Virus record (IMG/VR): IMGVR_UViG_2896028454_000001
Coordinates: 3,450 to 67,449 of that record
DNA length: 64,000 nt
From: a virus
Lineage: Duplodnaviria; Heunggongvirae; Uroviricota; Caudoviricetes
Reading direction: 5' to 3' (one strand)
The translations under genes and the position numbers were made by a program. The notes under the pieces are model-generated. The model did no database searches. It was not told the origin of the DNA and saw nothing but the letters and a program-made list of their open reading frames with translations. Of the stretch, positions 3,095 through 56,536 are shown piece by piece (the stretch's first letter is position 1; the number at the start of each line of letters is the position of its first letter).

Positions 3095-3697
3095 GTGTTC
3101 CGCACCTACAACCGACGCCCCGAAACCGTCGAGGGCATCAGCATCACCAACGACAACCTCACCCAGGCCGCCCAGTTCCTCACCGAACTCGGCTACGACG
3201 CCGCCCTGACCGAACCAAACAGCTACTTCAAGAAGCGGCACATCGTGGCGACCCTGCCCCGGAAGGGCGGCGGCCATAACACCCTCTACCTGTACAGCGG
3301 CCGGGTCCTCCTCCAGGACAGCGACAACACGTTCACGATCGCGAGCCAGGACGAGCACGACCACGAATACGCCCTGGCTGACCCCACCCCTGGGGCGAAC
3401 CCCGGGTTCGAGCACCTGCCCAAGGTCGCCGCCGCAGTCAAGATCCTCGCTGACGCCGGACACCAACCCGCACTCCTCGTGAGCCGGTACGGGGCGAACG
3501 ACCCGGCGCACAGCGTGACCCGGGGCGGGTTCCTGGTGCTGAGCTTCGCGCGCAAGCTCCTGATCCGCGCGGAGCAGGTGGACGACCCGGCCGCCCTGGT
3601 GGACGCCTACACGGCGGCGCTGGAGGCCGAGGGGTACACGGTCAAGCTCATCGACCGGTACCGGGTGCCGTACCTCGCGGTCACACCTCCCGAGTAA
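3095..3697 (+). CDS. Hypothetical protein (200 aa)
   Basis: ORF with balanced composition. GTG start after the terminator hairpin. Confidence 0.5.
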   Translation: MFRTYNRRPETVEGISITNDNLTQAAQFLTELGYDAALTEPNSYFKKRHIVATLPRKGGGHNTLYLYSGRVLLQDSDNTFTIASQDEHDHEYALADPTPGANPGFEHLPKVAAAVKILADAGHQPALLVSRYGANDPAHSVTRGGFLVLSFARKLLIRAEQVDDPAALVDAYTAALEAEGYTVKLIDRYRVPYLAVTPPE

Positions 3698-5276: not shown

Positions 5277-6607
5277 ACACCCCCACCGAGTTCCCGCACG
5301 ACATCCCCTCGGAGAAGGTCGTGCTGGGCCTGTGCCTGATCTCTAAACGCGCCCTGGAGGACGTGGCTGCCCACGGCCTGCTCCCGGAGGACTTCTACCG
5401 ACCTGCCCACCAGGCCATCTATGAGGCGGCCCGCCACCTGGTGGACATGGGCAAGCCGGTATCGGCGGAGTCGGTGAACGCCGAGCTGGCGCGCCGGGGC
5501 GAGTCGGTGGCGACCGGCGGCATCCTCACCCTGATCGAGTTGACAGAGAACACCCTGTCCCCGGCGACGGCCGTCTACTACGCCAACCTGGTCATCAACC
5601 AGGCCCGGCTACGGCGAGCCCTCCAAGGGGCCATCCGCGCCGCCCAGATCGCATCTGAGGGCCGCGGGGACGTCGATGAGCTGATCGGGATGATCGCCGC
5701 CGAGATGGAAGCGGCGACCGCCCCACGGGCCACCAACGACGACGAGTTCATGGCCCTCGGCGACATCATCCCCAACGTCGTGGACCTGCTGGAGAAACCC
5801 GACGAGGCCACCAACGCCGTCCCCCTGCCCTACGGAGACCTCGACGCCCTCACCGCAGGTCTCGAACCCGGGGAGGTCATGGTGGTGGCTGGCCGCCCCG
5901 GCACGGGTAAGACCACGTTCGCTCAGGACGCTGTCCGCCACGCCGCGATCCGCCACAACATCCCCTCCGTGTTCTTCAGCTTGGAGATGTCCAAGGAGGA
6001 GCTGACGCTGCGGGTCCTATGCGCCGAGTCGCGTGTGCCACTGCACACGATGAAGTCGCGCCTGCTGGACGAACCCGACTGGGAGCGCATCCGCGACGCC
6101 CGCAAACGCATCGCGGACGCCCCGCTGATGATCGACGCGAACCCGTACACCACCACCGCGCATATCCGCGCCCGCCTGCGTGGCATGGCCCGGCCCGCCC
6201 CCGGCAAGCCCGGCCCGGCCCGCCTCGTGGTCGTGGACTACCTCCAGCTGATGAAGCACCCCGGCCGGCCCGAAAACCGGCAGCAGGAAGTCTCCGACAT
6301 CTCGCGCGAGCTGAAGCTGATCGCGAAGGAGTTCGGGGTGGGCATCATCCTCCTGGCTCAGCTCAACCGCGGCCCCGAGCAGCGGCAGGACAAACGGCCG
6401 ATGGTGTCGGACCTGCGTGAGTCCGGCAGTGTGGAGCAGGACAGCGACATGGTCGTCCTGCTGTTCCGGGAGGACGTGTACGACAAGGAGTCGCCCCGGG
6501 CGGGGGAGCAGGACATCATCGTGGGCAAGCATCGGGGCGGCCCCACCGCTGAGGTGACCGTGGCGTTCCAGGGCCACTACTGCTGCGCTGTCGGGTTCGG
6601 TGACTGA
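5273..6607 (+). CDS. dnaB: DnaB-like replicative helicase
   Basis: N-terminal DnaB-type domain, Walker A GRPGTGKTTFAQD, VVVDYLQLM motif, RecA-like C-terminal domain (444 aa). Confidence 0.85.
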   Translation: MNTPTEFPHDIPSEKVVLGLCLISKRALEDVAAHGLLPEDFYRPAHQAIYEAARHLVDMGKPVSAESVNAELARRGESVATGGILTLIELTENTLSPATAVYYANLVINQARLRRALQGAIRAAQIASEGRGDVDELIGMIAAEMEAATAPRATNDDEFMALGDIIPNVVDLLEKPDEATNAVPLPYGDLDALTAGLEPGEVMVVAGRPGTGKTTFAQDAVRHAAIRHNIPSVFFSLEMSKEELTLRVLCAESRVPLHTMKSRLLDEPDWERIRDARKRIADAPLMIDANPYTTTAHIRARLRGMARPAPGKPGPARLVVVDYLQLMKHPGRPENRQQEVSDISRELKLIAKEFGVGIILLAQLNRGPEQRQDKRPMVSDLRESGSVEQDSDMVVLLFREDVYDKESPRAGEQDIIVGKHRGGPTAEVTVAFQGHYCCAVGFGD

Positions 6608-7416
6608 TGGCCGACCAGATCCCGCACGGCACCCCGTCCGGGTACTCGTACCACGGCTGCCGGTGCCGACCGTGCACAGACGCCCAGCTCAGGTACTGGA
6701 ACCGGCGTGAGTACATGATCCTCACCGGGCGGTGGAATCCGCACATCGCCACCGAGAAGGTGCGCGCCCACATCCTCACCCTGCGCGCCAAGGGCATCCC
6801 TGACCGGCGCATCGCAGAACTCGCCGATGTCGGGGCCACGTCGATCTACTACATCCTGCACCGCAACGGCGAGAAGACGTCCCGCCGGGTGGGTGAGGCG
6901 ATCCTGTCGGTCACCCACGACCCGGACCCGCCGCCGGAGAAGAAGGTTCCGGCGTGGGGCACCATCCGTCGCGCTCGGGCGCTCGCCGCGCTCGGGTGGT
7001 CCTCGGGTGAGATCGCTGAAGCCGCCGGGCTCACCCGGTCTGTGGTCCGCCACATCCTGCGTGGCCGCCCCCGGATGGTGCTGGCGGAAACGGCGACGGG
7101 CCTGGTCCGCGCGTACCGGAAGCTGGGCGGGGGCTTCGCCCCGGAGTCCCGAACCGCGAACCAGGTCCGAGATGAGGCGCGTGTGAAGGGGTGGCCGGCC
7201 CCGGCCGGGTGGGATGACCACTGGTTGGACCTGACCGAGGACGAGTTGGAGGCCGAGTTGGGGCGGGAGGTGGCGCGGATGGACATGGCGGAGCTGTCCC
7301 GGTGTTACAAGGCGTGGCGGGTGCGGGGGGAGTTGTCGCCGCTGGTGGTGGCCGCAGCGGCGGAGTACAACCGGCGTCGGGCGGATCAGGTACGGGCGCA
7401 GAGGGAGGCGGCGTGA
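6607..7416 (+). CDS. DNA-binding protein with an N-terminal Cys/His motif (GYSYHGCRCRPC) and HTH
   Basis: Motif GTPSGYSYHGCRCRPCTDAQLRYWNRREY. HTH-like IAELADVGATSIYYIL and IAEAAGLTRSVVRHIL. Confidence 0.5.
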   Translation: MADQIPHGTPSGYSYHGCRCRPCTDAQLRYWNRREYMILTGRWNPHIATEKVRAHILTLRAKGIPDRRIAELADVGATSIYYILHRNGEKTSRRVGEAILSVTHDPDPPPEKKVPAWGTIRRARALAALGWSSGEIAEAAGLTRSVVRHILRGRPRMVLAETATGLVRAYRKLGGGFAPESRTANQVRDEARVKGWPAPAGWDDHWLDLTEDELEAELGREVARMDMAELSRCYKAWRVRGELSPLVVAAAAEYNRRRADQVRAQREAA

Positions 7417-7793: not shown

Positions 7794-7845
7794 ACAGGGG
7801 GGTACGTGAGAATCTGGCTGTGGTTTTCTATGTCCCAGTGCTGTA

Positions 7846-7869
7846 AATTCGTGTAAATTTACACGAATT
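7846..7869. promoter_or_regulatory. 24-bp perfect palindrome AATTCGTGTAAATTTACACGAATT (copy 1) upstream of ssb
   Basis: Read directly. A near-identical copy lies at about 21560. Followed by a conserved CTGATAGAGTGGGGGTACCCC segment and a GGAAGGGGAAACCTTCC hairpin. Confidence 0.5.
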
Positions 7870-7977
7870 CTGATAGAGTGGGGGTACCCCAACGGGAAGG
7901 GGAAACCTTCCCGGGGGACAGGGGGTGACCTGCGCAAACGGCGAATCAGGCACCCACGAGATAGAGAGGTTCCCCCT

Positions 7978-8502
7978 GTGGCAGGCGAAACCCAGATCAC
8001 CCTGGTCGGCAACCTGGTGGACGACCCGGAGCTTCGGTTCACCCCGGGCGGTCACGCCGTCGCGAACTTCCGTGTCGCGTCTACCCCCCGCACCTTCGAC
8101 CGGGACAAGGGCGAGTACGTGGACGGCGAGTCCATGTTCCTCACCTGCACCGTCTGGCGGCAGTACGCGGAGAACGTGGCCGAGTCCCTTCAGCGCGGTA
8201 TGCGCGTCGTCGTTCAGGGCCGCTTGAAGCAGCGGAACTACGAGAAGGACGGCCAGAAGCGGACCGTCTTCGAGATCGACGTGGACGAGGTCGGCCCGTC
8301 CCTGCGGTCCGCGACCGCGCAGGTGACGAAGAACCCGCGCGGCAACGGCAACGGGGGCGGCCAGCGCTCCCAGGGCGGCGGCTACGGCCAGCAGTCCGGC
8401 GGGTTCGGCGGTGGCCAGCAGCCCCCGACCCAGGACCCGTGGGCCGGTAACGGCGGCGGTCAGCCCAGCGGCGGTAGCTACTCGGACGAGCCCCCGTTCT
8501 AA
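7978..8502 (+). CDS. ssb: Single-stranded DNA-binding protein
   Basis: OB-fold N-terminus ([19 protein letters not shown]...), Gly/Gln-rich tail ending in the acidic DEPPF. Confidence 0.9.
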
Positions 8503-8508
8503 CGGCTT

Positions 8509-8542
8509 GGGGCGGGACCAATTGGCATAGCCCTCCCGCCCC
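8509..8542 (+). terminator. Terminator-like hairpin after ssb (GGGGCGGGA...TCCCGCCCC)
   Basis: 9-bp inverted repeat directly after the ssb stop. Confidence 0.3.
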
Positions 8543-8645
8543 GCCCGGGTGGGCGGTCACTCCCACACCGCCCACCCCCCGGCCGCCCCGGCCCCGCTCC
8601 CCGGGGCGGCCCCACCCCCACCCCTGCACCCTCCAGGAGAACCCC

Positions 8646-9050
8646 GTGAAGCACCCCAAGACCAAGGTCGTCGCCCGCCTCCGCCTCCTGGCCAAGCACG
8701 CCACCGAGCGCGCTGACCTGCGAGACAAGAAGCTCCACGAGGACCACTACGAAGCCCTGAACTGCCACCGTCAGGCCGCCCCGCAGGTGCGCGAACTCCT
8801 CACGGAGGCCGAGAACCTGTTGGCCGGGGAGCCCACCGCCGCCGACTTCGAGCAGGCCAAGGCCCTCATCCGCCGCGCCGAACGCGCGCTCAGCCTTCGC
8901 GAAATCCCGTCCCTCACTACCCACCGAGCCGACCGTGGCCGCGCCGAGGCGTTGGAGGCTGCCGCCTCTCTGCTGGAGGACTCCGAGGGCGACACCGTGA
9001 CCACGTCCGAGCTGGAGCGGTTCGGCATCCTCTCCTACCTGCGGGTGTAA
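8646..9050 (+). CDS. Hypothetical protein (134 aa)
   Basis: ORF with K/E-containing composition, GTG start. Confidence 0.5.
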   Translation: MKHPKTKVVARLRLLAKHATERADLRDKKLHEDHYEALNCHRQAAPQVRELLTEAENLLAGEPTAADFEQAKALIRRAERALSLREIPSLTTHRADRGRAEALEAAASLLEDSEGDTVTTSELERFGILSYLRV

Positions 9051-9053
9051 CCC

Positions 9054-9275
9054 GTGGCCGCCCGCACCAGGCCGCGCCCCCGCGCCGCCCGTGTCCGCCG
9101 GTCCTCGTTCACGACCTGCCTCGCGTGCGGGCGCCCCGCCTACTCGTGCCGCCGCGACGCCCGCCGGGCCGCCCGGATTACCCACCCCGACACCCGGCCT
9201 CGCGCGTTCCGGTGCCGGGAGGTGGACGGCCAGGGGTGGCACCACGGCCCCCGCCCTACCCCGCTGAACCCCTGA
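9054..9275 (+). CDS. Small hypothetical Cys-containing protein
   Basis: Fills the gap between 9050 and 9291. CLACGRPAYSCRRD motif. Arg-rich, so it could be a frame artefact. Confidence 0.25.
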   Translation: MAARTRPRPRAARVRRSSFTTCLACGRPAYSCRRDARRAARITHPDTRPRAFRCREVDGQGWHHGPRPTPLNP

Positions 9276-9290
9276 CAGGAGACCACCGCC

Positions 9291-9623
9291 ATGCCCGTCC
9301 TGAACGTCACCCCCGAACTCGCCGCCCAGCTCACTGCCGCCGGGTGGACCCCGCCCCCGGACGTTACGGGGATGCTCGCCCAGGAACTCGACGGCAGGCT
9401 TCTCGGCCACGGGGAGGGCGACACCTCCCCCGTGTACGTGCTGATCGAGCAGCACGGGGCGATGGTCATCGGCGTGGAGAAGGGCGTCTACGACGAGTGT
9501 GCCGCCGCCGGGGATCTGGCCGAGCTGTTCGACGACCGACCGGCCGATGTCCTGTTCACCTCGTACACGGTCCTGACCGCTGAGCAGATCGCCGCCGCCC
9601 GCGCCGCGAAGGACGAGGACTGA
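9291..9623 (+). CDS. Hypothetical protein (110 aa)
   Basis: ORF, balanced acidic composition. Confidence 0.5.
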   Translation: MPVLNVTPELAAQLTAAGWTPPPDVTGMLAQELDGRLLGHGEGDTSPVYVLIEQHGAMVIGVEKGVYDECAAAGDLAELFDDRPADVLFTSYTVLTAEQIAAARAAKDED

Positions 9624-9626
9624 CCT

Positions 9627-10007
9627 GTGGACGCCATTGAGAACGCCGCCCCGTACCCCACCAGCCCCGAAGACGCCACCGCTGACCGGATCATCGCGAA
9701 CCTGGCCGCGACCGCCCAGTTCCACCGGGCCCGCACCCTCGAACTCGAACGCCTCCACCTCACCGACGAGGCCGCGTACCACCAGAGCGCCGAGATCGTG
9801 GTGTGGACCACGACCGCCCTGCACTTCCTCTACGCCCTCCAGCGCGCCGACCCGGCCCGCGCCGACAAGGCCGCCCGCGAGGCGTTCGGAATGTGGAAGA
9901 ACCGGGACCTTCTCGCGTCCCTGCCGGACAACATCCTGCGCCTGCGCGGGTTCGACGCCTACCAGCTGATTCAGGCCGGTATCGCGTCTGTCGATGAGTC
10001 CCTGTAA
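9627..10007 (+). CDS. Hypothetical protein (126 aa)
   Basis: ORF, balanced composition. Confidence 0.5.
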   Translation: MDAIENAAPYPTSPEDATADRIIANLAATAQFHRARTLELERLHLTDEAAYHQSAEIVVWTTTALHFLYALQRADPARADKAAREAFGMWKNRDLLASLPDNILRLRGFDAYQLIQAGIASVDESL

Positions 10008-10744: not shown

Positions 10745-11262
10745 TGCCCGTGGACACCGCCGCTGAGGCCCGCATGGTGGTCGCCGGGCGGGTCGCGGAC
10801 CCCACCACCCAGGAGGTCACCCCCGCAGAGCTGGAAGCCCTCCGCCCCCTCCTTGACGCCCTGGATCTGCTCCCCCGCCCCGAGACCCCGGACGAAGCCG
10901 AAGCCGAATCCGGGCCCGACACCACTAACCCGGTCAAGGAACCGATCGCCAACCCGGCCAAGGAACCGGCCGCCGTCCGGGACGAGTGCGGAACCCGCAA
11001 CGGCTACCAGCAGCATGTCCAGCTCGGCGAAGAAGCGTGTGAGGACTGCAAGGCAGCCAACCGGATCTACGCCTACGCCTGGTACCAGCGCAACAGGGCC
11101 AACCGCCGGGAGTTGGCCCCGTGCGGGACCGAAGCCGCGTACCAGCGGCACCGGCGGCGACGCGAGGAATGCCGGGAGTGCAAGGACGCGAACGCCCGGG
11201 CGGGCAGGGAGAAGCGGGCACGGCAGAGTGCCCGCCGAGCGCGCGACCGCGCCACCGCATGA
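10744..11262 (+). CDS. Protein with two copies of the G.GY..H...C..C..A..Y motif
   Basis: CGTRNGYQQHVQLGEEACEDCKAANRIYAYAWYQRNRANRR and CGTEAAYQRHRRRREECRECKDANARAGREKRARQ. Confidence 0.5.
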   Translation: MPVDTAAEARMVVAGRVADPTTQEVTPAELEALRPLLDALDLLPRPETPDEAEAESGPDTTNPVKEPIANPAKEPAAVRDECGTRNGYQQHVQLGEEACEDCKAANRIYAYAWYQRNRANRRELAPCGTEAAYQRHRRRREECRECKDANARAGREKRARQSARRARDRATA

Positions 11263-11312
11263 ACCCAGACCGCCCCACCCGAACCCACCCGCCTTTTGGA
11301 GAGGAGGCCCCC

Positions 11313-12107
11313 GTGCGCTTCTACCTCGGAACCCACCAACCCGACTGGCTTCACCACCTCAACCACCGGTGGTTCGAAGCCGACCAGGTCCCCCTGTTCG
11401 TGTCCCACCGCCGCCTCGCCGACCGCCGCACCCTGTTCCCCGCGAACGTCCCGTGGGCCCTCGACAGCGGCGGGTTCACCGAGCTGTCCATGTACGGCCG
11501 GTGGGTAACCACCCCCACGGACTACGCCCACCACGTCCGCCGGTACATGGACGAGATCGGCCGACTGGAGTGGGCCGCCCCGCAGGACTGGATGTGCGAG
11601 CCGGTGATGCTCGCCAAGACCGGCCTCACGGTCGCCCACCACCAGGCGCGCACCCTCGACAACCTGTTGGAGCTGCGCCACCTCGCCCCCGACCTGCCGT
11701 GGGTGCCCGTCCTCCAGGGGTGGGAGCCGGACGACTACCGGCGCCACGCCGACGCCTACCAGTCCGCTGGTGTCGACCTCACCACGGAACCCGTCGTCGG
11801 GTTGGGGTCGGTGTGCCGCCGCCAGTCCACCACCGCCGTGCACAGCCTGGTCGCTGAGCTGGCCGCTGCTGGGCTCCGGTTGCACGGGTTCGGGTTCAAA
11901 ACCCTTGGCCTCCGCAAGGTCGGGCATCTGCTCGCGTCCGCTGACAGCCTCGCTTGGTCGTTGAACGCCCGCCGTCGCCCCGCCATGGCCGAGTGCTTCG
12001 ACGCTCACGAGCACTGCGGGAACTGCCCCCGGTTCGCCACCCGGTGGCGCCGCCAGCTTCTCGACTCCCTCACCCCGCCCCCGGCCCCCTCCGCTTACGC
12101 GGCCTGA
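11313..12107 (+). CDS. tRNA-guanine transglycosylase superfamily protein, DpdA-like
   Basis: DSGGF catalytic-Asp motif (as in the TGT DSGGFQ). VPVLQGW, GLGSVCRR. C-terminal C-x5-H-x-HC-x2-C zinc-site-like motif (CFDAHEHCGNCP). Confidence 0.6.
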   Translation: MRFYLGTHQPDWLHHLNHRWFEADQVPLFVSHRRLADRRTLFPANVPWALDSGGFTELSMYGRWVTTPTDYAHHVRRYMDEIGRLEWAAPQDWMCEPVMLAKTGLTVAHHQARTLDNLLELRHLAPDLPWVPVLQGWEPDDYRRHADAYQSAGVDLTTEPVVGLGSVCRRQSTTAVHSLVAELAAAGLRLHGFGFKTLGLRKVGHLLASADSLAWSLNARRRPAMAECFDAHEHCGNCPRFATRWRRQLLDSLTPPPAPSAYAA

Positions 12108-12123
12108 CCCGAACAGGACCCCC

Positions 12124-12903
12124 ATGGACTCCCTCAGCCTCGCTGACCGCATGAAGACCTACGAGGCCGCCACCCGCCATATCCTCCCCGCCCAGACGTA
12201 CACCGTCGTCCGCGTTGACGGGCGGGCGTTCCACACGTTCCTCCGCCACGCTGACCGGCCGTTCGACGACGCGGTCATGGCCGCCATGGACGCCACCGCC
12301 GTCGCCCTCTGCAAGGACATCAGCGGGGCCCGGTTCGCCTACACCCAGTCGGACGAGGTCAGCGTCATCATGACCGACTTCGGGAACGCTGGCACACAGC
12401 CGTGGTTCGGCGGGGTCGTCCAGAAGATCGCGTCGGTTGCCTCCTCGGTGGCCACCGTGGCGTTCAACGCCGAGTACGGGCACCACTACGACGACGCGAC
12501 CGCCACGTTCGACGCGCGCGTGTTCACGCTCCCCACCGCGGCGGAGGTCGTGAACTACTTCGTGTGGCGGCAGCGCGACGCGGTCCGCAACGCCGTGTCC
12601 ATGGCTGCCCAGGCCGAGTTCTCCCACCGGCAACTCCACGGGGTGAACACCGCCCAGGCCCGCGAACTCCTCCGATCGCGCGGCATCGACTTCGACGCCT
12701 ACCCGGCCGGGGCCCGGTACGGCCGGTTGTGTGCTCGCGCCACCAGCGAACGCACCGTCACCTACACGGACAAGCGCGGGGTTGAGCACACCACCCGGGC
12801 CGTCCGCTCCCACTGGGAGACCATGCCCGCCCCGTCCTTCACCGCCGACCCGGGCGGGGATCTGGCCTCGTCCATCCCCGAGCCCGGCGACCACACCTCC
12901 TGA
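12124..12903 (+). CDS. Thg1-like protein (tRNA-His guanylyltransferase-like 3'-5' nucleotidyltransferase family)
   Basis: VVRVDGRAFH vs Thg1 VVRLDGRNFH. AYTQSDEVSVIM vs AYGQSDEYSFVF. DARVFTLPT...YFVWRQ vs DGRVVVYPS...YLSWRQ. Motifs are collinear with eukaryotic Thg1. Confidence 0.75.
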   Translation: MDSLSLADRMKTYEAATRHILPAQTYTVVRVDGRAFHTFLRHADRPFDDAVMAAMDATAVALCKDISGARFAYTQSDEVSVIMTDFGNAGTQPWFGGVVQKIASVASSVATVAFNAEYGHHYDDATATFDARVFTLPTAAEVVNYFVWRQRDAVRNAVSMAAQAEFSHRQLHGVNTAQARELLRSRGIDFDAYPAGARYGRLCARATSERTVTYTDKRGVEHTTRAVRSHWETMPAPSFTADPGGDLASSIPEPGDHTS

Positions 12904-20487: not shown

Positions 20488-20739
20488 GTGAACCTCGCTG
20501 GCCGTACCCGCGCTGACATCGACGCGCTCCTCACCGAACGAGACACCGACATCGCCACCCTCACCCAAGCCGCCGACATCGCCGACACCCGCCGCCTGTT
20601 CGACCTCGCCGACCACTGCCGAAAGTGGGCAGCGAACCCACCCAACCCCGCCGGGGGCACCCCGATCGGGTACCTCCTCGCCCTCACCTACGCGGACCTT
20701 CTCGTCCACGGCCACACCCCCCAGGAGCACACCCCATGA
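20488..20739 (+). CDS. Hypothetical protein (83 aa)
   Basis: GTG start inside track ORF 20431..20739. Confidence 0.4.
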   Translation: MNLAGRTRADIDALLTERDTDIATLTQAADIADTRRLFDLADHCRKWAANPPNPAGGTPIGYLLALTYADLLVHGHTPQEHTP

Positions 20740-21515
20740 CCCTGATGACCGGGTTCGACCTGGAAACCACCGGGAAGGACCCCGAAACCGCGCGCATCGT
20801 CGAGTACGGGTTCGCGCACGTCGGCGGCGGCCAACCTTCCGAGTTCGTGGAGGAACGTGTCAACCCGGGGGTTCCGATCCCAGCCGAGGCCGCCCAGGTC
20901 CACGGCATCACCGACGAGATGGTGGCCGCCGCCATGTCGGCCGAGGCCGCGGTGACCCGCATTGTGCGGACCATCGCTGGGGTGCTCGCTGAGGGCCGGT
21001 TGCTGGTCGGCCACAACATCGTGTACGACCTGACCGTGTTGGACCGGGAGTGCCGCCGCCACCTCGGGGAGGGGTTGGAGTCCCTGTTGGGGGTGCCGGT
21101 CCGCCCGGTGGTGGACACGTTGGTGTTGTCCAAGCACCTGGACCCGTACCGCAAGAGGGTGTCGGACAAGCAGGGTGCTCACCAGTTGCGTACCTGTGTG
21201 GAGAAGATGGTGACCCCCCGGTGGCCGTCTGTGGTGTGGGACGAGGGGGAGGCGCACGGGGCCCTGTACGACTGTCGCATGGCGTTGTATGTGGCCGCGG
21301 CCGTGTTGGCTCTCCCGAAGCTGTCCAACCTGGGCCTGGGGGAGTTGCACGATGCCCAGGTGGGGTGGAAGGCCGCTCAAGCCGCCGGGTTCCAGACCTA
21401 CCTTCGCAACCCGGCGAAAGCGGGGGACAGCTACGACCCGGGCGCGGTAGTGGACGGCAGGTGGCCGGTTGTTCCGGCTGAGCCCCGGCAGGAGGCGTTG
21501 TTGGGGAGGGGGTGA
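20736..21515 (+). CDS. DnaQ-like 3'-5' exonuclease (DEDDh)
   Basis: Exo I FDLETTG. Exo II LVGHNIVYDL. Exo III HGALYD. Confidence 0.75.
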   Translation: MTLMTGFDLETTGKDPETARIVEYGFAHVGGGQPSEFVEERVNPGVPIPAEAAQVHGITDEMVAAAMSAEAAVTRIVRTIAGVLAEGRLLVGHNIVYDLTVLDRECRRHLGEGLESLLGVPVRPVVDTLVLSKHLDPYRKRVSDKQGAHQLRTCVEKMVTPRWPSVVWDEGEAHGALYDCRMALYVAAAVLALPKLSNLGLGELHDAQVGWKAAQAAGFQTYLRNPAKAGDSYDPGAVVDGRWPVVPAEPRQEALLGRG

Positions 21516-21559
21516 GGGGGTGGTGGGGTGTGGGCGGTGTCCCGCACCCCATCACTGTA

Positions 21560-21583
21560 AATTCGTGTAAATTTACAAGAATT
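21560..21583. promoter_or_regulatory. 24-bp palindrome AATTCGTGTAAATTTACAAGAATT (copy 2, one mismatch) upstream of the HAD/RNA-ligase operon
   Basis: About 55 nt are shared with the copy at 7846, including the downstream GGGGGTACCCC palindrome. Confidence 0.5.
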
Positions 21584-21640
21584 CTGGTAGGATGGGGGTA
21601 CCCCCGGAAGGGGCGAAACCCCTGAATCCGAGGAGTCCCC

Positions 21641-22261
21641 GTGCCCCCTTTCCCTCGTGCTGTCTGTCCTGGTTGTGGCGAGGACATCGCGGTCAACCGG
21701 GGCGGGCGTCTCCGCGTTCACGGCCGTCTGCCCTACGACGGGTGCCCCGGGTCCAGCAGGTACGCCCGGCCTCTGCTGTTCCTGGACGTGGACGGGCCCT
21801 TGAACCCGCACTACATGGGCAAGAACAAGTCCCGCCGGTTGGGTTACCAGCGGGACTGGATCAACGGGTTCGACGTCCGTCTGAACCCCTCCCACGGCCC
21901 CGCCCTCCTCGGCCTCCCTGTGGATCTGGTGTGGGGCACCACGTGGGAGCACGACGCGAACAAGCTGATCGGCCCCGTCATCGGGCTGCCCGAACTGCCG
22001 GTGTGCGAGTGGTCGAAGACCGAACCGAAAGGCATCGACCGGCGGGTGTATTACAAAACCCCCGACCTGGTCGATTACGCCGAAGACCGGCACCGGCCGT
22101 GGATCTGGGTGGACGACGAGATCGGCGACGCCGACCGCGAATACGCCGCCGGGGCCGCGACCGTCCCCACCCTCCTCCACCGGGTGGACCCCCGCGAAGG
22201 GCTCACCACCGACGACTTCACCGCGATCACCGCGTGGGTCCACAACCTCAACAACCCCTGA
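21641..22261 (+). CDS. HAD-superfamily phosphatase (polynucleotide 3'-phosphatase-like)
   Basis: Motif I FLDVDGPL. Motif IV WIWVDDEIGD. N-terminal CPGC...C zinc ribbon. Confidence 0.55.
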   Translation: MPPFPRAVCPGCGEDIAVNRGGRLRVHGRLPYDGCPGSSRYARPLLFLDVDGPLNPHYMGKNKSRRLGYQRDWINGFDVRLNPSHGPALLGLPVDLVWGTTWEHDANKLIGPVIGLPELPVCEWSKTEPKGIDRRVYYKTPDLVDYAEDRHRPWIWVDDEIGDADREYAAGAATVPTLLHRVDPREGLTTDDFTAITAWVHNLNNP

Positions 22262-22272
22262 AACGGAACCCC

Positions 22273-23061
22273 ATGACACTCCTCGAAACCCTCAACCGCA
22301 GGCTGCTGAACAGCGCCACCCAGTACCCGAAGATGCCCACCTACCACAAGCTCGAACGCGGCCTGCTCACCGATGACCGCAACACCGTGTTCCCCGCCCA
22401 CCAGCCCGTCATCATCACGGAGAAGGTCAACGGTGCGTCCGCCCGCGTGGTGGTGGACTCCTCCGGGGACCTGTTCATCGGCTCCCGCCATGAACTCCTG
22501 TACGCCCTCGGCGACCGCATCCCGAACCCGGCCGAGAACATCGTCCACACCCTCCGCGACATCGCCCGGGACCTGCCCCGCCCCGGCGACGGGCTGGCCG
22601 TGTACTTCCTGGAGGTGTACGGCAGCGGCATCGGGTCCGCGTGGAAGCAGTACACCGGCCGCAAGGGCGAGTACGGGGCCCGCCTGTTCGACGCCGCGAT
22701 GATCCCCGCCGACGCCCTGGAGGGCACGGCCGAGCAAATCGCCGCATGGCGCGAGCAGGGCGGCCAGAAGTTCGCGACGGAGAAGGAACTGGCCGGAATC
22801 ACCCTGGTGTCGGACATCCCCCTCACCCCGCGCATCGCGACGATCCCTGGGGCCGGAGTGCCCGCGACCATCGCGGAGATGCACCCGTACCTGTGCGTGG
22901 TCGCCGGGGAGACCCGGGTCGCCCTGGACGAGGACGGTTTCGGCAACGCGGAAGGGATCGTGCTCCGCACCCCGGACCGGTCCCACATCGTCAAGGTCCG
23001 GCACAAGGACTACGAGCACACCGCGAAGGCCCGCGCCCGCGCCCGTGCGAAGGCCGCCTGA
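22273..23061 (+). CDS. ATP-dependent RNA ligase-like nucleotidyltransferase (Rnl2-like)
   Basis: Motif I ITEKVNGAS (KxNG lysine nucleotidyltransferase motif). Motif IV-like EGIVLR. Motif V-like IVKVRHKD. Confidence 0.55.
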   Translation: MTLLETLNRRLLNSATQYPKMPTYHKLERGLLTDDRNTVFPAHQPVIITEKVNGASARVVVDSSGDLFIGSRHELLYALGDRIPNPAENIVHTLRDIARDLPRPGDGLAVYFLEVYGSGIGSAWKQYTGRKGEYGARLFDAAMIPADALEGTAEQIAAWREQGGQKFATEKELAGITLVSDIPLTPRIATIPGAGVPATIAEMHPYLCVVAGETRVALDEDGFGNAEGIVLRTPDRSHIVKVRHKDYEHTAKARARARAKAA

Positions 23062-23128
23062 CCCCCACCCCCCGGGGCGGCCGTAGGGAAGACGGCCGCC
23101 CCCCGGACCAGAAGCGAGAACACCCCCT

Positions 23129-24442
23129 GTGATCACCATCAAGGACCTCTTCGCCGGTGGCGGCGGCACCACCACAGGCGCCCGCAAGGTGCCTGGCGTC
23201 AAGGTCAGCATGGCCGTCAACCACTGGCCGCTGGCCGTCGACACCCACAACCTGAACCACCCCGACACCGGCCACGACTGCGTCGACATCTCCCAAGTCG
23301 ACCCCCGCCGGTACCCGACCACGGACATCCTGTGTGCGTCTCCGGAGTGCACGCAGCAGACCAGGGCGCAGGGCGTGGCCCGCACCGCCCGGCAGGCGTT
23401 CGACCTGTTCAGCACCGACGAGATGGACGCCGCTGAACGCTCCCGCGCCACCATGTGGGACGTACTGCGGTTCACGGAGGTGCACGCCTACCGGTACATC
23501 ATCGTGGAGAACGTCATCGACGTCCGAGGCTGGGCGATGTGGCCCGCGTGGGCGCTGGGCCTGGGCTGTCTCGGCTACGAGTTCCGGTACATCAGCCTCA
23601 ACAGCATGTTCGCTGGGGCTTTCGGCGCCCCGGCAGCCCAGTCCCGCAACCGGGGTTACGTCGTCGCGTGGAAGAAGGGCGAGCGCGCCCCGGATTTCAA
23701 CGCGTGGCTGCGCCCCTACGCGGACTGCCCCGTTCACAAGCGTGTGCAGGCCATCCAGGCGTTCAAGAACGGTCGCGAGTACGGCGAGTACGGGCCCCAG
23801 TACATCTGGCGGTGCCCCCGCGTGGAGTGCCGTAACACCCAGGTCCACCCGAAGGTGCGCCCGGCCGCCGACATCATCGACTGGTCCATCCCCACCCCAC
23901 GCATCGGCGACCGCACCACCCCGCTCGTGGAGAACACCATGCGCCGGGTCCGGGACGGGGTCGCCACCTACGGCCGCCCGGCCGAGGACGGCACCCACCT
24001 GCCGCCGTTCATGACCGAACTCCGGGGCGGCGGGTCCAAGCACCGGCCCATGGCGTCCCCGCTGTCCACCGTCACCGCTGGCGGCAACCACCACGCCATC
24101 ACCGTCCCCGACATGATCTACCCGTACTACGGCAACTCGGCTCTCCAGCCCGCCGCCCGGCCGCTGCCCACGGTCACGACGGTGGACACCTGCGCGCTCC
24201 TGCAAGGCGGGGTCATCCGCGACATCAACGACCTGCGGTACCGGATGCTCAAACCGCACGAGTACGCCGCCGCCCAGGAGTTCCCGGCGGACTACCGGTG
24301 GCCGGTTACGTCGAGCAAGAAGCTCGTCCGGATGATCGGGAACGCGGTGTCCACGAACGCGGCCCGTGACCTGGTGGGCATGGTCGCCGCCCAGATGGAC
24401 CCGAGCATCGTTCCGACGTGGGGGATGGGGTTGGCCGCATGA
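23129..24442 (+). CDS. DNA (cytosine-5)-methyltransferase
   Basis: FAGGGG motif I, SPEC (PC motif), IVENV motif VI, target-recognition domain region, C-terminal motifs. Confidence 0.85.
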   Translation: MITIKDLFAGGGGTTTGARKVPGVKVSMAVNHWPLAVDTHNLNHPDTGHDCVDISQVDPRRYPTTDILCASPECTQQTRAQGVARTARQAFDLFSTDEMDAAERSRATMWDVLRFTEVHAYRYIIVENVIDVRGWAMWPAWALGLGCLGYEFRYISLNSMFAGAFGAPAAQSRNRGYVVAWKKGERAPDFNAWLRPYADCPVHKRVQAIQAFKNGREYGEYGPQYIWRCPRVECRNTQVHPKVRPAADIIDWSIPTPRIGDRTTPLVENTMRRVRDGVATYGRPAEDGTHLPPFMTELRGGGSKHRPMASPLSTVTAGGNHHAITVPDMIYPYYGNSALQPAARPLPTVTTVDTCALLQGGVIRDINDLRYRMLKPHEYAAAQEFPADYRWPVTSSKKLVRMIGNAVSTNAARDLVGMVAAQMDPSIVPTWGMGLAA

Positions 24443-24798
24443 GCCGCCGTGTGATTGTGACCGGCGGCCGGGATTACACCGACCAGAACACCGTTGCCCG
24501 GACACTCCAGTCCCTCTACCTCGCGCCGCTCTCCCCGGGCAACCCGCCCACGCTCGTCCACGGAGGCGCGCCCGGGGCTGACCGCCTGGCCGCCAAGTAC
24601 GCCCACGCCCACTACTGGCCAGTCCATGAATTCCCCGCGAACTGGCGGAGACACGGCCCCGCGGCCGGGCCGATCCGTAACCAGCAGATGGCGGATGCCG
24701 GGGCTGACCTGTGCATCGCGTTCCCCGGCGGCCGTGGCACCGCTGACATGGTGTCCCGGGCGAAGGCCGCAGGCATCCCCGTCCGCCTGGTGCCGTGA
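24439..24798 (+). CDS. DUF2493/SLOG-family (YspA-like) protein
   Basis: VIVTGGRDYTD ... LVHGGAPGAD pattern typical of the SLOG-type family in actinophages. Confidence 0.5.
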   Translation: MSRRVIVTGGRDYTDQNTVARTLQSLYLAPLSPGNPPTLVHGGAPGADRLAAKYAHAHYWPVHEFPANWRRHGPAAGPIRNQQMADAGADLCIAFPGGRGTADMVSRAKAAGIPVRLVP

Positions 24799-25085
24799 TG
24801 GGTGACCCGCTGCCCGGGATGCCCACCCCAACCCCCCGCCCCCGGCCGTCGTTGGCCGACTACCCGGCCCGCATCCGCGTGTACGGCGGCCGGAACACCC
24901 ATGCCGCCCGTACCGAACTCGCACGCCCTGGTTCAGCACGGGAGTGGACGCACCGGACCGCCTGTGACCGGGTATCCGACGCCGGGTCCGCCTCCCGCCT
25001 CCGAGACCACCTGCTTGACCCTGACACCCCTGTCACCTGCAAAGCGTGCACGAACGCCCTCACCCCCAAGGAGCCCACCCCGTGA
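24795..25085 (+). CDS. Hypothetical protein (96 aa)
   Basis: GTGATG start region overlapping the upstream stop. Confidence 0.4.
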   Translation: MMGDPLPGMPTPTPRPRPSLADYPARIRVYGGRNTHAARTELARPGSAREWTHRTACDRVSDAGSASRLRDHLLDPDTPVTCKACTNALTPKEPTP

Positions 25086-25660
25086 CGAAGCTCGTGTTCG
25101 TCGACACCGAGACGACCGGTCTGAACCCTCGCGTTCACCACCCGTGGGAGGTGGCCGTGATCGTGGAAACCCCCGGGGAGGAGCTGGTGGAGAAGCGGTG
25201 GTTCCTGCCCGTGGACCTCACCCACGCTGACCCGAAGGCGTTGGAGATCGGCGGGTTCTGGGACCGGTACCCGCAGGGCACCGGGATCGTCAAGGGGCGC
25301 CTGGGGGAGCCGCGTGTGGTCGCCTGCACGTTGGCCCGCATCCTCGCCGGGGCGGTCGTGGTCGGCTCCAACCCCGCCTTCGACCAGGCGATGCTGACCC
25401 CGCTGTTGGCCGCGCACGGGCAGGTGTGGGCCGCCCACTATCGGATGGTCGACGTGATCACCCTCGGGGCCGGGGCCATGTACGCCGACGACGCTTTCCC
25501 TGTGATCCCCGGTGACCCGCACGCTCTCCCGTTCTCCACGACCCGGATCAGTGAGGTGTTCGGGATCAATCCCGACGACTACGACCGGCACACCGCGTTG
25601 GGTGACTGCTACTGGTCAAAGGCACTGTTTGAAGCGATCACGAAGAGGGGCGCCGAGTGA
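25082..25660 (+). CDS. DnaQ-like 3'-5' exonuclease (second copy)
   Basis: FVDTETTGL exo I motif. DEDD-like spacing. Confidence 0.7.
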   Translation: MTKLVFVDTETTGLNPRVHHPWEVAVIVETPGEELVEKRWFLPVDLTHADPKALEIGGFWDRYPQGTGIVKGRLGEPRVVACTLARILAGAVVVGSNPAFDQAMLTPLLAAHGQVWAAHYRMVDVITLGAGAMYADDAFPVIPGDPHALPFSTTRISEVFGINPDDYDRHTALGDCYWSKALFEAITKRGAE

Positions 25661-48930: not shown

Positions 48931-49021
48931 GGGAGTGCGCCGGAGATGGAGCGCCGGAGCTGGCTGTAACCCAGTGACCCCTTTCGCGGGTTAGGAGGTT
49001 CGAGTCCTCCCACTCCCACCA
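48931..49021 (+). tRNA. tRNA-Tyr (anticodon GTA), class II with long variable arm, encoded CCA
   Basis: Hand-folded. Acceptor GGGAGTG/CACTCCC. D-arm CCGG/CCGG with GG. Anticodon stem GCTGG/CCAGT. Loop CT-GTA-AC. T-arm GGAGG-TTCGAGT-CCTCC. About 91 nt. Coordinates +/- 1. Confidence 0.6.
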
Positions 49022-49042: not shown

Positions 49043-49118
49043 ATGCGGGTAGCTCAACTGGTAGAGCAGCCGCCTCCAAAGCGGCCGGTTGCGGGTTCGA
49101 ACCCTGCCCCGTATGCCA
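49043..49118 (+). tRNA. tRNA-Trp (anticodon CCA), encoded CCA
   Basis: Hand-folded. Acceptor ATGCGGG/CCCGTAT (one G-U pair). D-arm GCTC-AACTGGTA-GAGC. Anticodon stem GCCGC/GCGGC. Loop CT-CCA-AA. T-arm GCGGG-TTCGAAC-CCTGC. 76 nt. Confidence 0.75.
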
Positions 49119-56005: not shown

Positions 56006-56536
56006 GTGCGCCACCCCTGCCCCACCCCCGGGTGCCCCCACACCACCCCCACCCGAACCACCCGGTGCGACCACTGCACCCGACGCACAGGACGAGCACA
56101 CCGCATCACCCTCGTCTGCGGGCCACCCTGCGCCGGGAAGAACACCTACGTCACCCAGCACGCCCAACCCGGCGACCTGGTCGTAGACCTCGACGCCCTC
56201 TACCGCGCGATCAACGCCAACCCCACCCGGGCCGACCACGACCAACCCGCCAGCCTCACCCCCTTCGCCCTCGACGCCCGCGACACCATCCTCCACCGGC
56301 TACTCCACGGCGACCACAACCTCCGCGCCGCCTGGATCATCCACTCCGCACCCAACCCAGCGACGCGAGCCGAATGGAAAGCTCGCGGCGCAAAAGTCGT
56401 GATGATCAACGCGAGCCTGGACACGCTCACCCACAGGGCACACCGGCAGCGCCCCACCGCATGGGTTGATCACATCCACGACTGGCACCGCCGCTACCAG
56501 CCCGGCCACGTCGACCAGACAGTCACCACCGGGTAA
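56006..56536 (+). CDS. P-loop NTPase, polynucleotide-kinase-like (AAA_33-type) with N-terminal zinc ribbon
   Basis: Walker A LVCGPPCAGKNTYV followed by DLVVDLD. N-terminal CPTPGCPH...CDHC. Confidence 0.5.
   Translation: MRHPCPTPGCPHTTPTRTTRCDHCTRRTGRAHRITLVCGPPCAGKNTYVTQHAQPGDLVVDLDALYRAINANPTRADHDQPASLTPFALDARDTILHRLLHGDHNLRAAWIIHSAPNPATRAEWKARGAKVVMINASLDTLTHRAHRQRPTAWVDHIHDWHRRYQPGHVDQTVTTG

Follow-up and report, generated by a model that had tools for sequence, protein, structure and literature searches.

In jumbo phages, ATP-grasp RNA ligases act with polynucleotide kinases (PNKs) and haloacid dehalogenase (HAD) phosphatases (Iyer et al. 2021, Viruses 13:63, PMC7824862). The HADs of these phages belong to two families, one fused to PNK and one standalone and named 'Swiss-army-knife' (SAK), and the standalone SAK-family HADs have been proposed to be linear 3'-phosphatases that work alongside ATP-grasp RNA ligases, Thg1, and tRNAs (PMC7824862). 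The repertoire also includes RlaP, sporadic Thg1, and tRNA provisioning, and has been read as an answer to host attack on the translation apparatus (PMC7824862).

Here we analyzed a 64,000-nt stretch of a Caudoviricetes virus record (IMGVR_UViG_2896028454_000001, positions 3,450 to 67,449), hereafter the window, in which a standalone HAD phosphatase gene is followed by a gene for an RNA-ligase-like nucleotidyltransferase (NTase). The window belongs to a large element of Nocardiopsis sp. FR26 that is a phage or resembles a prophage. An 'RNA ligase family protein' encoded on contig VWVX01000002.1 of this strain (253 kb) matches the ligase open reading frame (ORF) with 100% identity, and window position 22273 corresponds to position 143834 of that record. 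Positions 21556-23102 form a bicistronic cassette of operator/promoter, HAD_SAK_2 phosphatase, minimal PF09414 ligase, and hairpin; its gene structure, the catalytic motifs and folds of the two proteins, the conserved synteny, and the genomic associations of the families are described below. We favor the reading, at a probability of roughly 0.55, that the cassette mends broken RNA ends, for example those of cut tRNAs, and that a Thg1-like enzyme and the phage tRNAs serve the same end. The features of the cassette are as follows.

21560..21583, + strand: operator-like, AT-rich palindrome of 24 nt, AATTCGTGTAAATTTACAAGAATT, which overlaps the putative promoter at its -35/spacer position
21588..21604, + strand: -10-like hexamer TAGGAT followed by the GGGGGTACCCC palindrome, both parts being common to two copies of the element (TAGAGT/TAGGAT)
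21641..22261, + strand: phosphatase of the HAD_SAK_2 ('Swiss-army-knife' RNA-repair HAD) family (PF18143 match, motifs, AlphaFold2 [AF2] fold)
22273..23061, + strand: minimal ATP-dependent RNA-ligase-like NTase (PF09414, motifs, AF2/Foldseek)
23074..23102, + strand: GC-rich hairpin past the ligase stop, with an 11-bp stem and a 7-nt loop; candidate terminator or mRNA 3' stabilizer

Motifs and folds of the two proteins

The ligase ORF starts with ATG and encodes 262 residues. It matched PF09414 (RNA_ligase) with 36.3 bits (E 8.3e-9, profile positions 2-170 of 171), exceeding the gathering score of 27. Motif I is TEKVNG (KxNG; E50-K51-x-x-G54) and was invariant in 30 homologues, as were motifs Ia (G70-S71-R72), III (E114/G117), IIIa (F139-D140), IV (E227-G228-x-V-x-R232), and V (K241). 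The motif set of covalent nucleotidyltransferases (ligases and capping enzymes), namely I, Ia, III, IIIa, IV, and V, is present in full. The AF2 model had a predicted local distance difference test score (pLDDT) of 93.8 and a predicted template modeling score (pTM) of 0.90. In a Foldseek comparison of this model with the PDB, the top matches were RNA ligases only: NgrRnl (Naegleria, Rnl5) ranked first at 5e-8, and the other leading matches were T4 Rnl2, Rnl3 of Pyrococcus, Palaeococcus, and Methanobacterium, and trypanosome REL1. DNA ligases appeared from rank 30 on, with E 8.7e-5 or weaker, and there was no capping enzyme in the top 50.

The ligase has about 44 residues before motif I, an NTase domain that extends to about residue 243, and then a single helix (244-261); no oligonucleotide-binding (OB) domain or other appended domain was seen in the AF2 model. 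Every DNA ligase has an OB domain after the NTase domain, and the six characterized families of RNA ligases each have a flanking domain of their own (PMC7261155). The window ligase lacks the C-terminal OB domain of DNA ligases, the family-specific C-terminal domain that follows the NTase in Rnl2 (PMC7261155), and the OB-fold domain that precedes the NTase in Rnl5, NgrRnl being its top structural match for the NTase part only. By motifs and model, the window protein appears to work like an RNA ligase; it belongs to PF09414 and is architecturally neither Rnl2 nor Rnl5. The choice between a DNA ligase or capping enzyme and an RNA ligase, on which the original prediction depended, thus fell to the RNA ligase.

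The location of the gene among exonucleases and a C5 methyltransferase, behind an SSB-type promoter, would also suit a protein of DNA metabolism that seals nicks in DNA or RNA-DNA hybrids and is effectively the DNA ligase of the phage. Rnl2/Rnl5-type enzymes seal duplex nicks (PMC7261155), and no DNA ligase was identified in the part of the window proteins that was scanned. We give this explanation very little likelihood, since the OB domain found in all DNA ligases is missing, RNA ligases are ahead structurally by at least three orders of magnitude in E-value, and the homologues keep company with Ro, Thg1, RlaP, and tRNA arrays, not with replication genes.

An exhaustive profile search recovered 1225 cluster representatives of the ligase family, 636 of them at E <1e-30. 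Nearly all of the best 150 representatives were 245-275 residues long and almost all were single-domain proteins; no fusion ('Rosetta stone') protein joining the ligase to a HAD or a kinase was found among these 150. A 625-residue member (P0169) carries a Hint/LAGLIDADG intein inserted shortly past motif I, and a 607-residue member has an unannotated extension. The family is broad in cellular genomes (319 species hits), and its bare-NTase architecture has no solved or characterized representative.

The HAD ORF starts with GTG, encodes 206 residues, and is preceded by a Shine-Dalgarno sequence, GAGGAG, at 21630-21635. It contains FLDVDGPL at residues 47-54 and WVDDEIGD at residues 156-163; the original prediction had reported these two motifs beside a KxNG RNA-ligase-like ORF, and all three were found where it had placed them. 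The protein scored 26.0 bits (E 1.3e-5) over the full length of Pfam HAD_SAK_2 (PF18143; 'HAD domain in Swiss Army Knife RNA repair proteins'), 1.5 bits short of the gathering score of 27.5. The aligned homologues all matched PF18143 and nothing else (27/27; best E 4.1e-8). Catalytic motifs I-IV (DxD D49/D51; T100/T101; K139; D158-D159) were invariant or nearly so in 29 homologues, and all four motifs of the HAD superfamily (I DxD, II S/T, III K/R, IV DD/ExD) are present. The AF2 model (pLDDT 88.9) showed the Rossmannoid HAD core fold. The Pfam profile search found no kinase domain in the HAD protein. Sequence searches of the HAD and the ligase against the PDB, singly or as profiles, gave no significant match. 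No NCBIfam model and no PADLOC defense-system model matched the HAD, the ligase, the Thg1-like protein, or a P-loop protein of the window (56006..56536) that is treated below.

The HAD carries an N-terminal CxxC..H..C motif (C9, C12, H27, C35; residues 9-35, window 21665-21745) that is kept in four phage-lineage HADs and absent from the chromosomal HAD family. It is possibly a zinc knuckle. This extension was modeled at low confidence (pLDDT 54-69), and its sole match was a faint one to DUF7560. Public gene calls of the HAD in three Nocardiopsis genomes (P0043, P0044, P0045; 153 or 147 residues) begin at an internal Met past motif I and therefore have neither the catalytic DxD nor a Pfam assignment. 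The longer, GTG-started ORF, with its strong Shine-Dalgarno sequence and conserved N-terminus, is the real gene.

Control element and conserved neighborhoods

The HAD and ligase genes are both on the + strand, with 12 nt between the HAD stop and the ligase start. The region upstream of the HAD is an AT-rich island in a genome of 69% G+C. The palindrome there has the form AATTCGTGTAAATTTACA[A/C]GAATT, which occurs twice in the window, at 21560-21583 and 7846-7869, against 0 matches expected by chance; the copy at 7846-7869 is perfect and that at 21560-21583 has one mismatch. TAGGAT begins four nucleotides past the 24-nt palindrome and is followed by GGGGGTACCCC, and the control element contains an internal direct repeat, TGTAAATT, present twice. 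TAGGAT fits TAGRRT, which we take to be the form of actinomycete -10 boxes. The whole block of about 50 nt (7842-7890 versus 21554-21604) is identical between the two copies except at 4 positions, in agreement with the duplicated palindromic control element that had been predicted. The second copy is as follows.

7846..7890, + strand: second palindrome/-10/GGGGGTACCCC element, upstream of the SSB gene (7978..8502; PF00436, 99 bits)

Between 20.5 and 25.8 kb, no canonical promoter came out of a generic scan for the sigma-70 consensus. We nevertheless infer that the AT-rich element upstream of the HAD is a promoter, because of its -10-like box, its position, and its duplication. By position, one and the same palindrome/-10/GGGGGTACCCC block would drive both the SSB operon and the HAD-ligase cassette. 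A protein with HTH_23 and HTH_3 domains (6607..7416), encoded immediately upstream of the first element copy, is a candidate regulator.

The hairpin past the ligase stop had a folding energy of -29.9 kcal/mol with a z-score of only -1.9, and it has no T-run. A hairpin was found at the same site in two related elements, of Nocardiopsis CT-R113 (L002) and N. terrae (L003), with an altered stem sequence and the pairing kept. These two elements also retain the gene order exonuclease-HAD-ligase-methyltransferase-YAcAr, and at the corresponding site each has a palindrome with a -10-like box behind it (L002 9305-9324; L003 9318-9339). The palindromes are unrelated between elements, being AATTAGCGCTAATT in L002 and CCAAAAATACCGGTATTTTTGG in L003. 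This pattern, in which the palindromes are kept in position and unrelated in sequence, would fit operators of element-specific regulators. The two-gene operon of the original prediction therefore stands as a compact co-directional cassette with an upstream element and a downstream hairpin, kept in three related Nocardiopsis elements.

No near-identical DNA of the window was found in the phage database. Among deposited phages that encode homologues of both proteins, the nearest were the Streptomyces phages JustBecause and Kela (184 kb), with identities of 39% for the ligase and 46% for the HAD. We surveyed the context of about 130 ligase-family loci and counted HAD genes within a 10-kb radius at 106 of them. 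HAD_SAK_2 lay within this distance of a ligase homologue at 8 of the 106 loci, in four independent lineages: the window lineage; L039 (same strand, 1.2 kb); L028, with the gene order WhiB, ligase, Dam methylase, HAD; and L031/L037/L052 (opposite strand). The tight, bounded arrangement was conserved in one lineage, that of the three related Nocardiopsis elements.

With HADs at only 8/106 loci, the two genes may be mere neighbors, the HAD acting on nucleotides or on 3'-phosphate ends of DNA in a replication/recombination module and the ligase acting on RNA independently. In the window and in JustBecause the HAD lies beside DnaQ-like exonucleases, 33 kb separate the HAD from the ligase in JustBecause, the closest HAD homologue lacks a neighboring ligase, and the operator is common to the SSB gene. 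On the other hand, three elements retain the bounded cassette with its tight 12-nt gap, HAD-ligase proximity recurs in four independent lineages, the HAD of a Streptomyces synnematoformans element lies in a gene run of Rnl1-RlaP-Pnkp and adjoins a tRNA, and all HAD family members match only the RNA-repair-associated HAD_SAK_2 model. We think it unlikely that the two genes are unconnected, and regard a functional link between HAD and ligase as plausible but not firm.

In the neighbor analysis of the ligase family, the largest non-self cluster was a Ro-like protein. A Ro-like (TROVE) gene is immediately downstream of the ligase in JustBecause, and Ro-like genes also lie beside the ligase in a viral contig (L091) and in two Planctomycetes. 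In seven Dactylosporangium chromosomes (L054, L056, L057, L058, L068, L078, L080; approximately 8170-9660, minus strand), a Ro-like gene is divergent from the ligase homologue, about 350 nt upstream. The Ro-ligase pairing resembles Rsr-RtcB operons, but with a different ligase. A Thg1 gene adjoins the ligase homologue in L022 (20-nt gap) and lies 2 kb off in L104 and 8 kb off in L096; RlaP adjoins it in L102, and a CCA-adding-type PolyA_pol domain was found nearby in one case. In L095, the ligase homologue lies inside an array of 37 tRNAs, 248 nt downstream of one tRNA and 57 nt upstream of another, and similar tRNA settings were found in L098, L089, and JustBecause. In L022, what looked like a 560-residue ORF fusing Thg1 to the ligase was dismissed, since the Thg1 and ligase matches do not share a frame and the frame of Thg1 ends at 9980. 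There is good support for an RNA substrate of the ligase family, probably tRNA, because the recurrent neighbors are components of RNA repair or RNA surveillance. The RNA-repair theme with a link to Thg1 and tRNAs, as first proposed from the window, thus extends to the family, whose members lie beside Ro-like proteins, Thg1, RlaP, and HAD_SAK_2 and in tRNA arrays.

The same neighbors might speak for RNA housekeeping, that is, maturation or quality control of phage tRNAs or structured RNAs in a Ro/Y-RNA-like manner, irrespective of host immunity. The ligase family is partnered most often by the Ro-like protein, including in the Dactylosporangium chromosomes without phage context, the family is widespread in cellular genomes (the 319 species hits and 1225 clusters above), and neither the HAD nor the ligase was matched by a defense or anti-defense model. 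However, the window has no Ro homologue, and in phages the ligase genes are grouped with tRNA arrays and repair enzymes, a setting read in the literature as a response to host tRNA attack (PMC7824862). We consider pure housekeeping distinctly improbable.

The wider repair set and gene content of the window

Besides the cassette, the following features of the window relate to tRNA.

12124..12903, + strand: Thg1-like 3'-5' nucleotidyltransferase, for tRNA 5'-end repair or maturation (PF04446, 99.4 bits; phrog_4717, 241 bits)
48931..49021, + strand: tRNA-Tyr (GUA), 91 nt, with a long variable arm (ARAGORN)
49043..49118, + strand: tRNA-Trp (CCA) (ARAGORN; Rfam tRNA, 62.1 bits)

The Thg1-like gene, which encodes the Thg1 catalytic domain, is 9.4 kb upstream of the ligase gene (22273). 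The tRNA-Tyr scored below the Rfam tRNA gathering score and gave 32.9 bits with the tRNA-Sec model, a member of the tRNA clan. A weak YrlA Rfam match over both tRNAs (22.7 bits; gathering score 69) was read as tRNA-likeness, and a Y RNA was rejected.

A further P-loop ORF (56006..56536) had been counted as a kinase-like member of a dispersed toolkit. Its match to AAA_33 was marginal (30.3 bits; threshold 27), and it matched phrog_4581 ('terminase small subunit', head and packaging) with 114 bits. It is immediately upstream of the genes for the small and large terminase subunits (TerS and TerL), and its actinophage homologues lie at genome ends beside terminases, even in the 17-kb phage McGonagall, without RNA-repair genes. 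The homologues are variously annotated as 'polynucleotide kinase', 'terminase small subunit', and 'HNH endonuclease'. We rejected an RNA 5'-kinase, as the phrog_4581 packaging-module family fits far better. The dispersed toolkit accordingly keeps its Thg1-like protein and two tRNAs and loses its P-loop kinase. Of the profile assignments suggested with it, PF09414 passed (36.3 bits), the HAD assignment came close in the form of HAD_SAK_2 (26.0 against 27.5 bits), and AAA_33 gave way to the higher-scoring phrog_4581.

Searches of the window by tblastn with genuine proteins (the Pnkp query being from L131) found no homologue of Rnl1, RlaP, Pnkp, or Ro. The 5'-polynucleotide kinase of a complete T4-like heal-and-seal kit is thus missing within the window. 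The window's repair kit is a subset and not an unusually complete set, contrary to the initial claim of an 'unusually complete' end-healing and sealing capacity; a Streptomyces relative is much fuller. A search with the S. synnematoformans Pnkp gave 2659 matches, and the best 120 of these 2659 were all from Streptomyces. A host-supplied 5'-kinase is conceivable, because Pnkp homologues are very common in Streptomyces chromosomes.

The phage character of the window is evident because it encodes TerS/TerL, DnaB, SSB, a sliding clamp, and DpdA. Nearly all genes are on the + strand, and the G+C content is 69%. The window encodes a DnaC-like loader, DnaB helicase, an HTH protein, SSB, the sliding clamp, a single-strand annealing protein, DpdA, Thg1, both terminase subunits, two DnaQ/RNase_T-type exonucleases, a C5 DNA methyltransferase, a YAcAr SLOG protein, and the two tRNAs. 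The DpdA homologue (11121-12107; 285 bits), a 7-deazaguanine DNA modification enzyme, is directly upstream of the Thg1-like gene, and the C5 methyltransferase and YAcAr SLOG genes are at 23129..24442 and 24418..24798. Given DpdA, the C5 methyltransferase, and the YAcAr SLOG protein, the phage DNA is probably heavily modified. A kinship of the YAcAr SLOG protein with a DUF4326 protein beside a Nodularia phage ligase was rejected, as BLASTP showed no similarity. Two paralogous DEDDh (RNase_T/DnaQ-like) exonuclease genes, at 20733-21515 and 25046-25660, lie on either side of the cassette region. In L002 and L003 the former is again found just upstream of the HAD, and in JustBecause it is three genes from the HAD. 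It might serve as a proofreading subunit for DNA or trim the 3' ends of RNA.

Proposed role and comparison with known systems

In the RNA-end repair that we favor, the DxD nucleophile of the HAD (D49/D51) would strip the 3'-phosphate from a broken RNA end, and a 2',3'-cyclic phosphate may be resolved too. The ligase would form a Lys51-AMP adduct, adenylylate the 5'-phosphate end, and join it to the 3'-OH that the HAD has healed. The substrate is likely to be structured or duplex RNA, for instance a nicked tRNA. The Thg1-like enzyme, by rebuilding 5' ends, and the two phage tRNAs, as replacements, would keep translation running under tRNA attack. The 5'-kinase step, which the window does not encode, would have to be supplied by the host or from outside the window, or be needless where the break already has a 5'-phosphate. 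The substrates and the order of reactions are deduced, as is the counter-defense role of the cassette, which is plausible in view of the literature (PMC7824862).

Several observations weigh against RNA-end repair by the cassette. Its neighborhood is one of DNA replication and modification, with an operator common to the SSB gene, and the window has no credible 5'-kinase or cyclic phosphodiesterase. The HAD scored just below the Pfam gathering threshold (26.0 versus 27.5 bits) and has neither a specific similarity to the T4 Pnkp phosphatase nor a HAD_PNKP match. The HAD family comprises more than 2500 proteins, mostly chromosomal and standalone in actinobacteria; the single chromosomal example inspected (L006) has no RNA-repair context, and no ligase adjoins the closest HAD homologue (P0042, 76% identity). 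Most ligase homologues are without a conserved partner, and no partner dominates in the family. In JustBecause, the HAD, 33 kb from the ligase, is near a DnaQ-like exonuclease and a helicase.

We also put forward, tentatively and with low expectation, that the ligases of about 255 residues without an appended domain (1225 clusters in Actinobacteria, Planctomycetes, Cyanobacteria, and phages) may be an RNA ligase class distinct from Rnl1-6. In these Nocardiopsis phages such a ligase would work with a Cys/His-tagged HAD_SAK in a self-sufficient, kinase-independent heal-and-seal pathway that acts on 3'-P/5'-P breaks or else depends on Ro or Thg1 partners located elsewhere.

The cassette adds an actinophage instance to the known RNA-repair equipment of phages and leaves current concepts unchanged. 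It highlights two abundant families without biochemistry, the bare-NTase PF09414 ligases and the actinobacterial HAD_SAK_2 phosphatases. The recurrent partners Ro, Thg1, RlaP, and tRNA arrays make the function of both families directly testable. If RNA-end repair by the cassette is correct, a phage can carry part of the heal-and-seal chemistry with the host supplying the remainder, and the compact ligase may be of use as a reagent.

The T4 system (Pnkp and Rnl1, with Rnl2 as a second ligase) and the cassette both consist of a phage-encoded HAD-type DxD phosphatase and a lysine-adenylylating, ATP-dependent RNA ligase, and the predicted logic is the same, namely that the 3' end is healed and then sealed. 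However, T4 Pnkp is a 5'-kinase fused to a phosphatase, whereas the window HAD has no kinase domain and the window has no Pnkp homologue. The cassette HAD is of the HAD_SAK_2 family, unlike the HAD_PNKP of T4, and the cassette ligase is not Rnl1 (PF09511), nor is it Rnl2 by architecture, lacking the C-terminal domain. The T4-like pairing that the original prediction had drawn therefore holds for the families, a phosphatase and an RNA ligase, and fails for a specific likeness of the HAD to the T4 Pnkp phosphatase.

By structure, the best matches of the window ligase were Rnl5 (Naegleria NgrRnl, Deinococcus DraRnl) and Rnl2 (T4 Rnl2, trypanosome REL1), with Foldseek E-values of 5e-8 to 4e-6 and template modeling (TM) scores of about 0.5. 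They share NTase motifs I-V, yet the sequence identity is only 9-16%, and the window ligase is a bare NTase domain of about 255 residues, without the N-terminal OB domain of Rnl5 or the C-terminal domain of Rnl2.

By sequence, the window ligase is of one family with the 'RNA ligase' gp136 of JustBecause, where gp135 is Ro-like, and with the ligase of the prophage-like S. synnematoformans element (contig BAAAPF010000003), at 39-46% identity. The window HAD is 46% identical to JustBecause gp71 and 51% identical to the S. synnematoformans homologue. The latter element also has a window-type Thg1 (55% identity) and a C5 methyltransferase (48% identity). In both relatives the HAD and the ligase are apart, and the ligase partner is Ro in JustBecause and Thg1 in S. 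synnematoformans. In the S. synnematoformans element (L022 9198-10777; L131 1020-8543), the Thg1 and ligase genes adjoin with a 20-nt gap. The 22 kb upstream of them contain, all on that strand, an Rnl1-antirepressor-RlaP-Pnkp cluster, the HAD_SAK_2 homologue, and tRNAs. The HAD there adjoins a tRNA-Leu and forms one co-directional gene run with Rnl1, RlaP, and a true Pnkp. This RNA-repair region is far more complete than that of the window.

The jumbo-phage repertoire (PMC7824862) and the window have in common the SAK-type standalone HAD, the PF09414 ligase, Thg1, tRNAs, and the functional prediction. The window holds a reduced subset, in which no PNK, RlaP, RtcB, or CCA-adding enzyme was found. 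Compared with that repertoire, the N-terminal Cys/His motif of the HAD (in the phage lineage only), the tight bicistronic unit, and the bare-NTase ligase are specific to the cassette.

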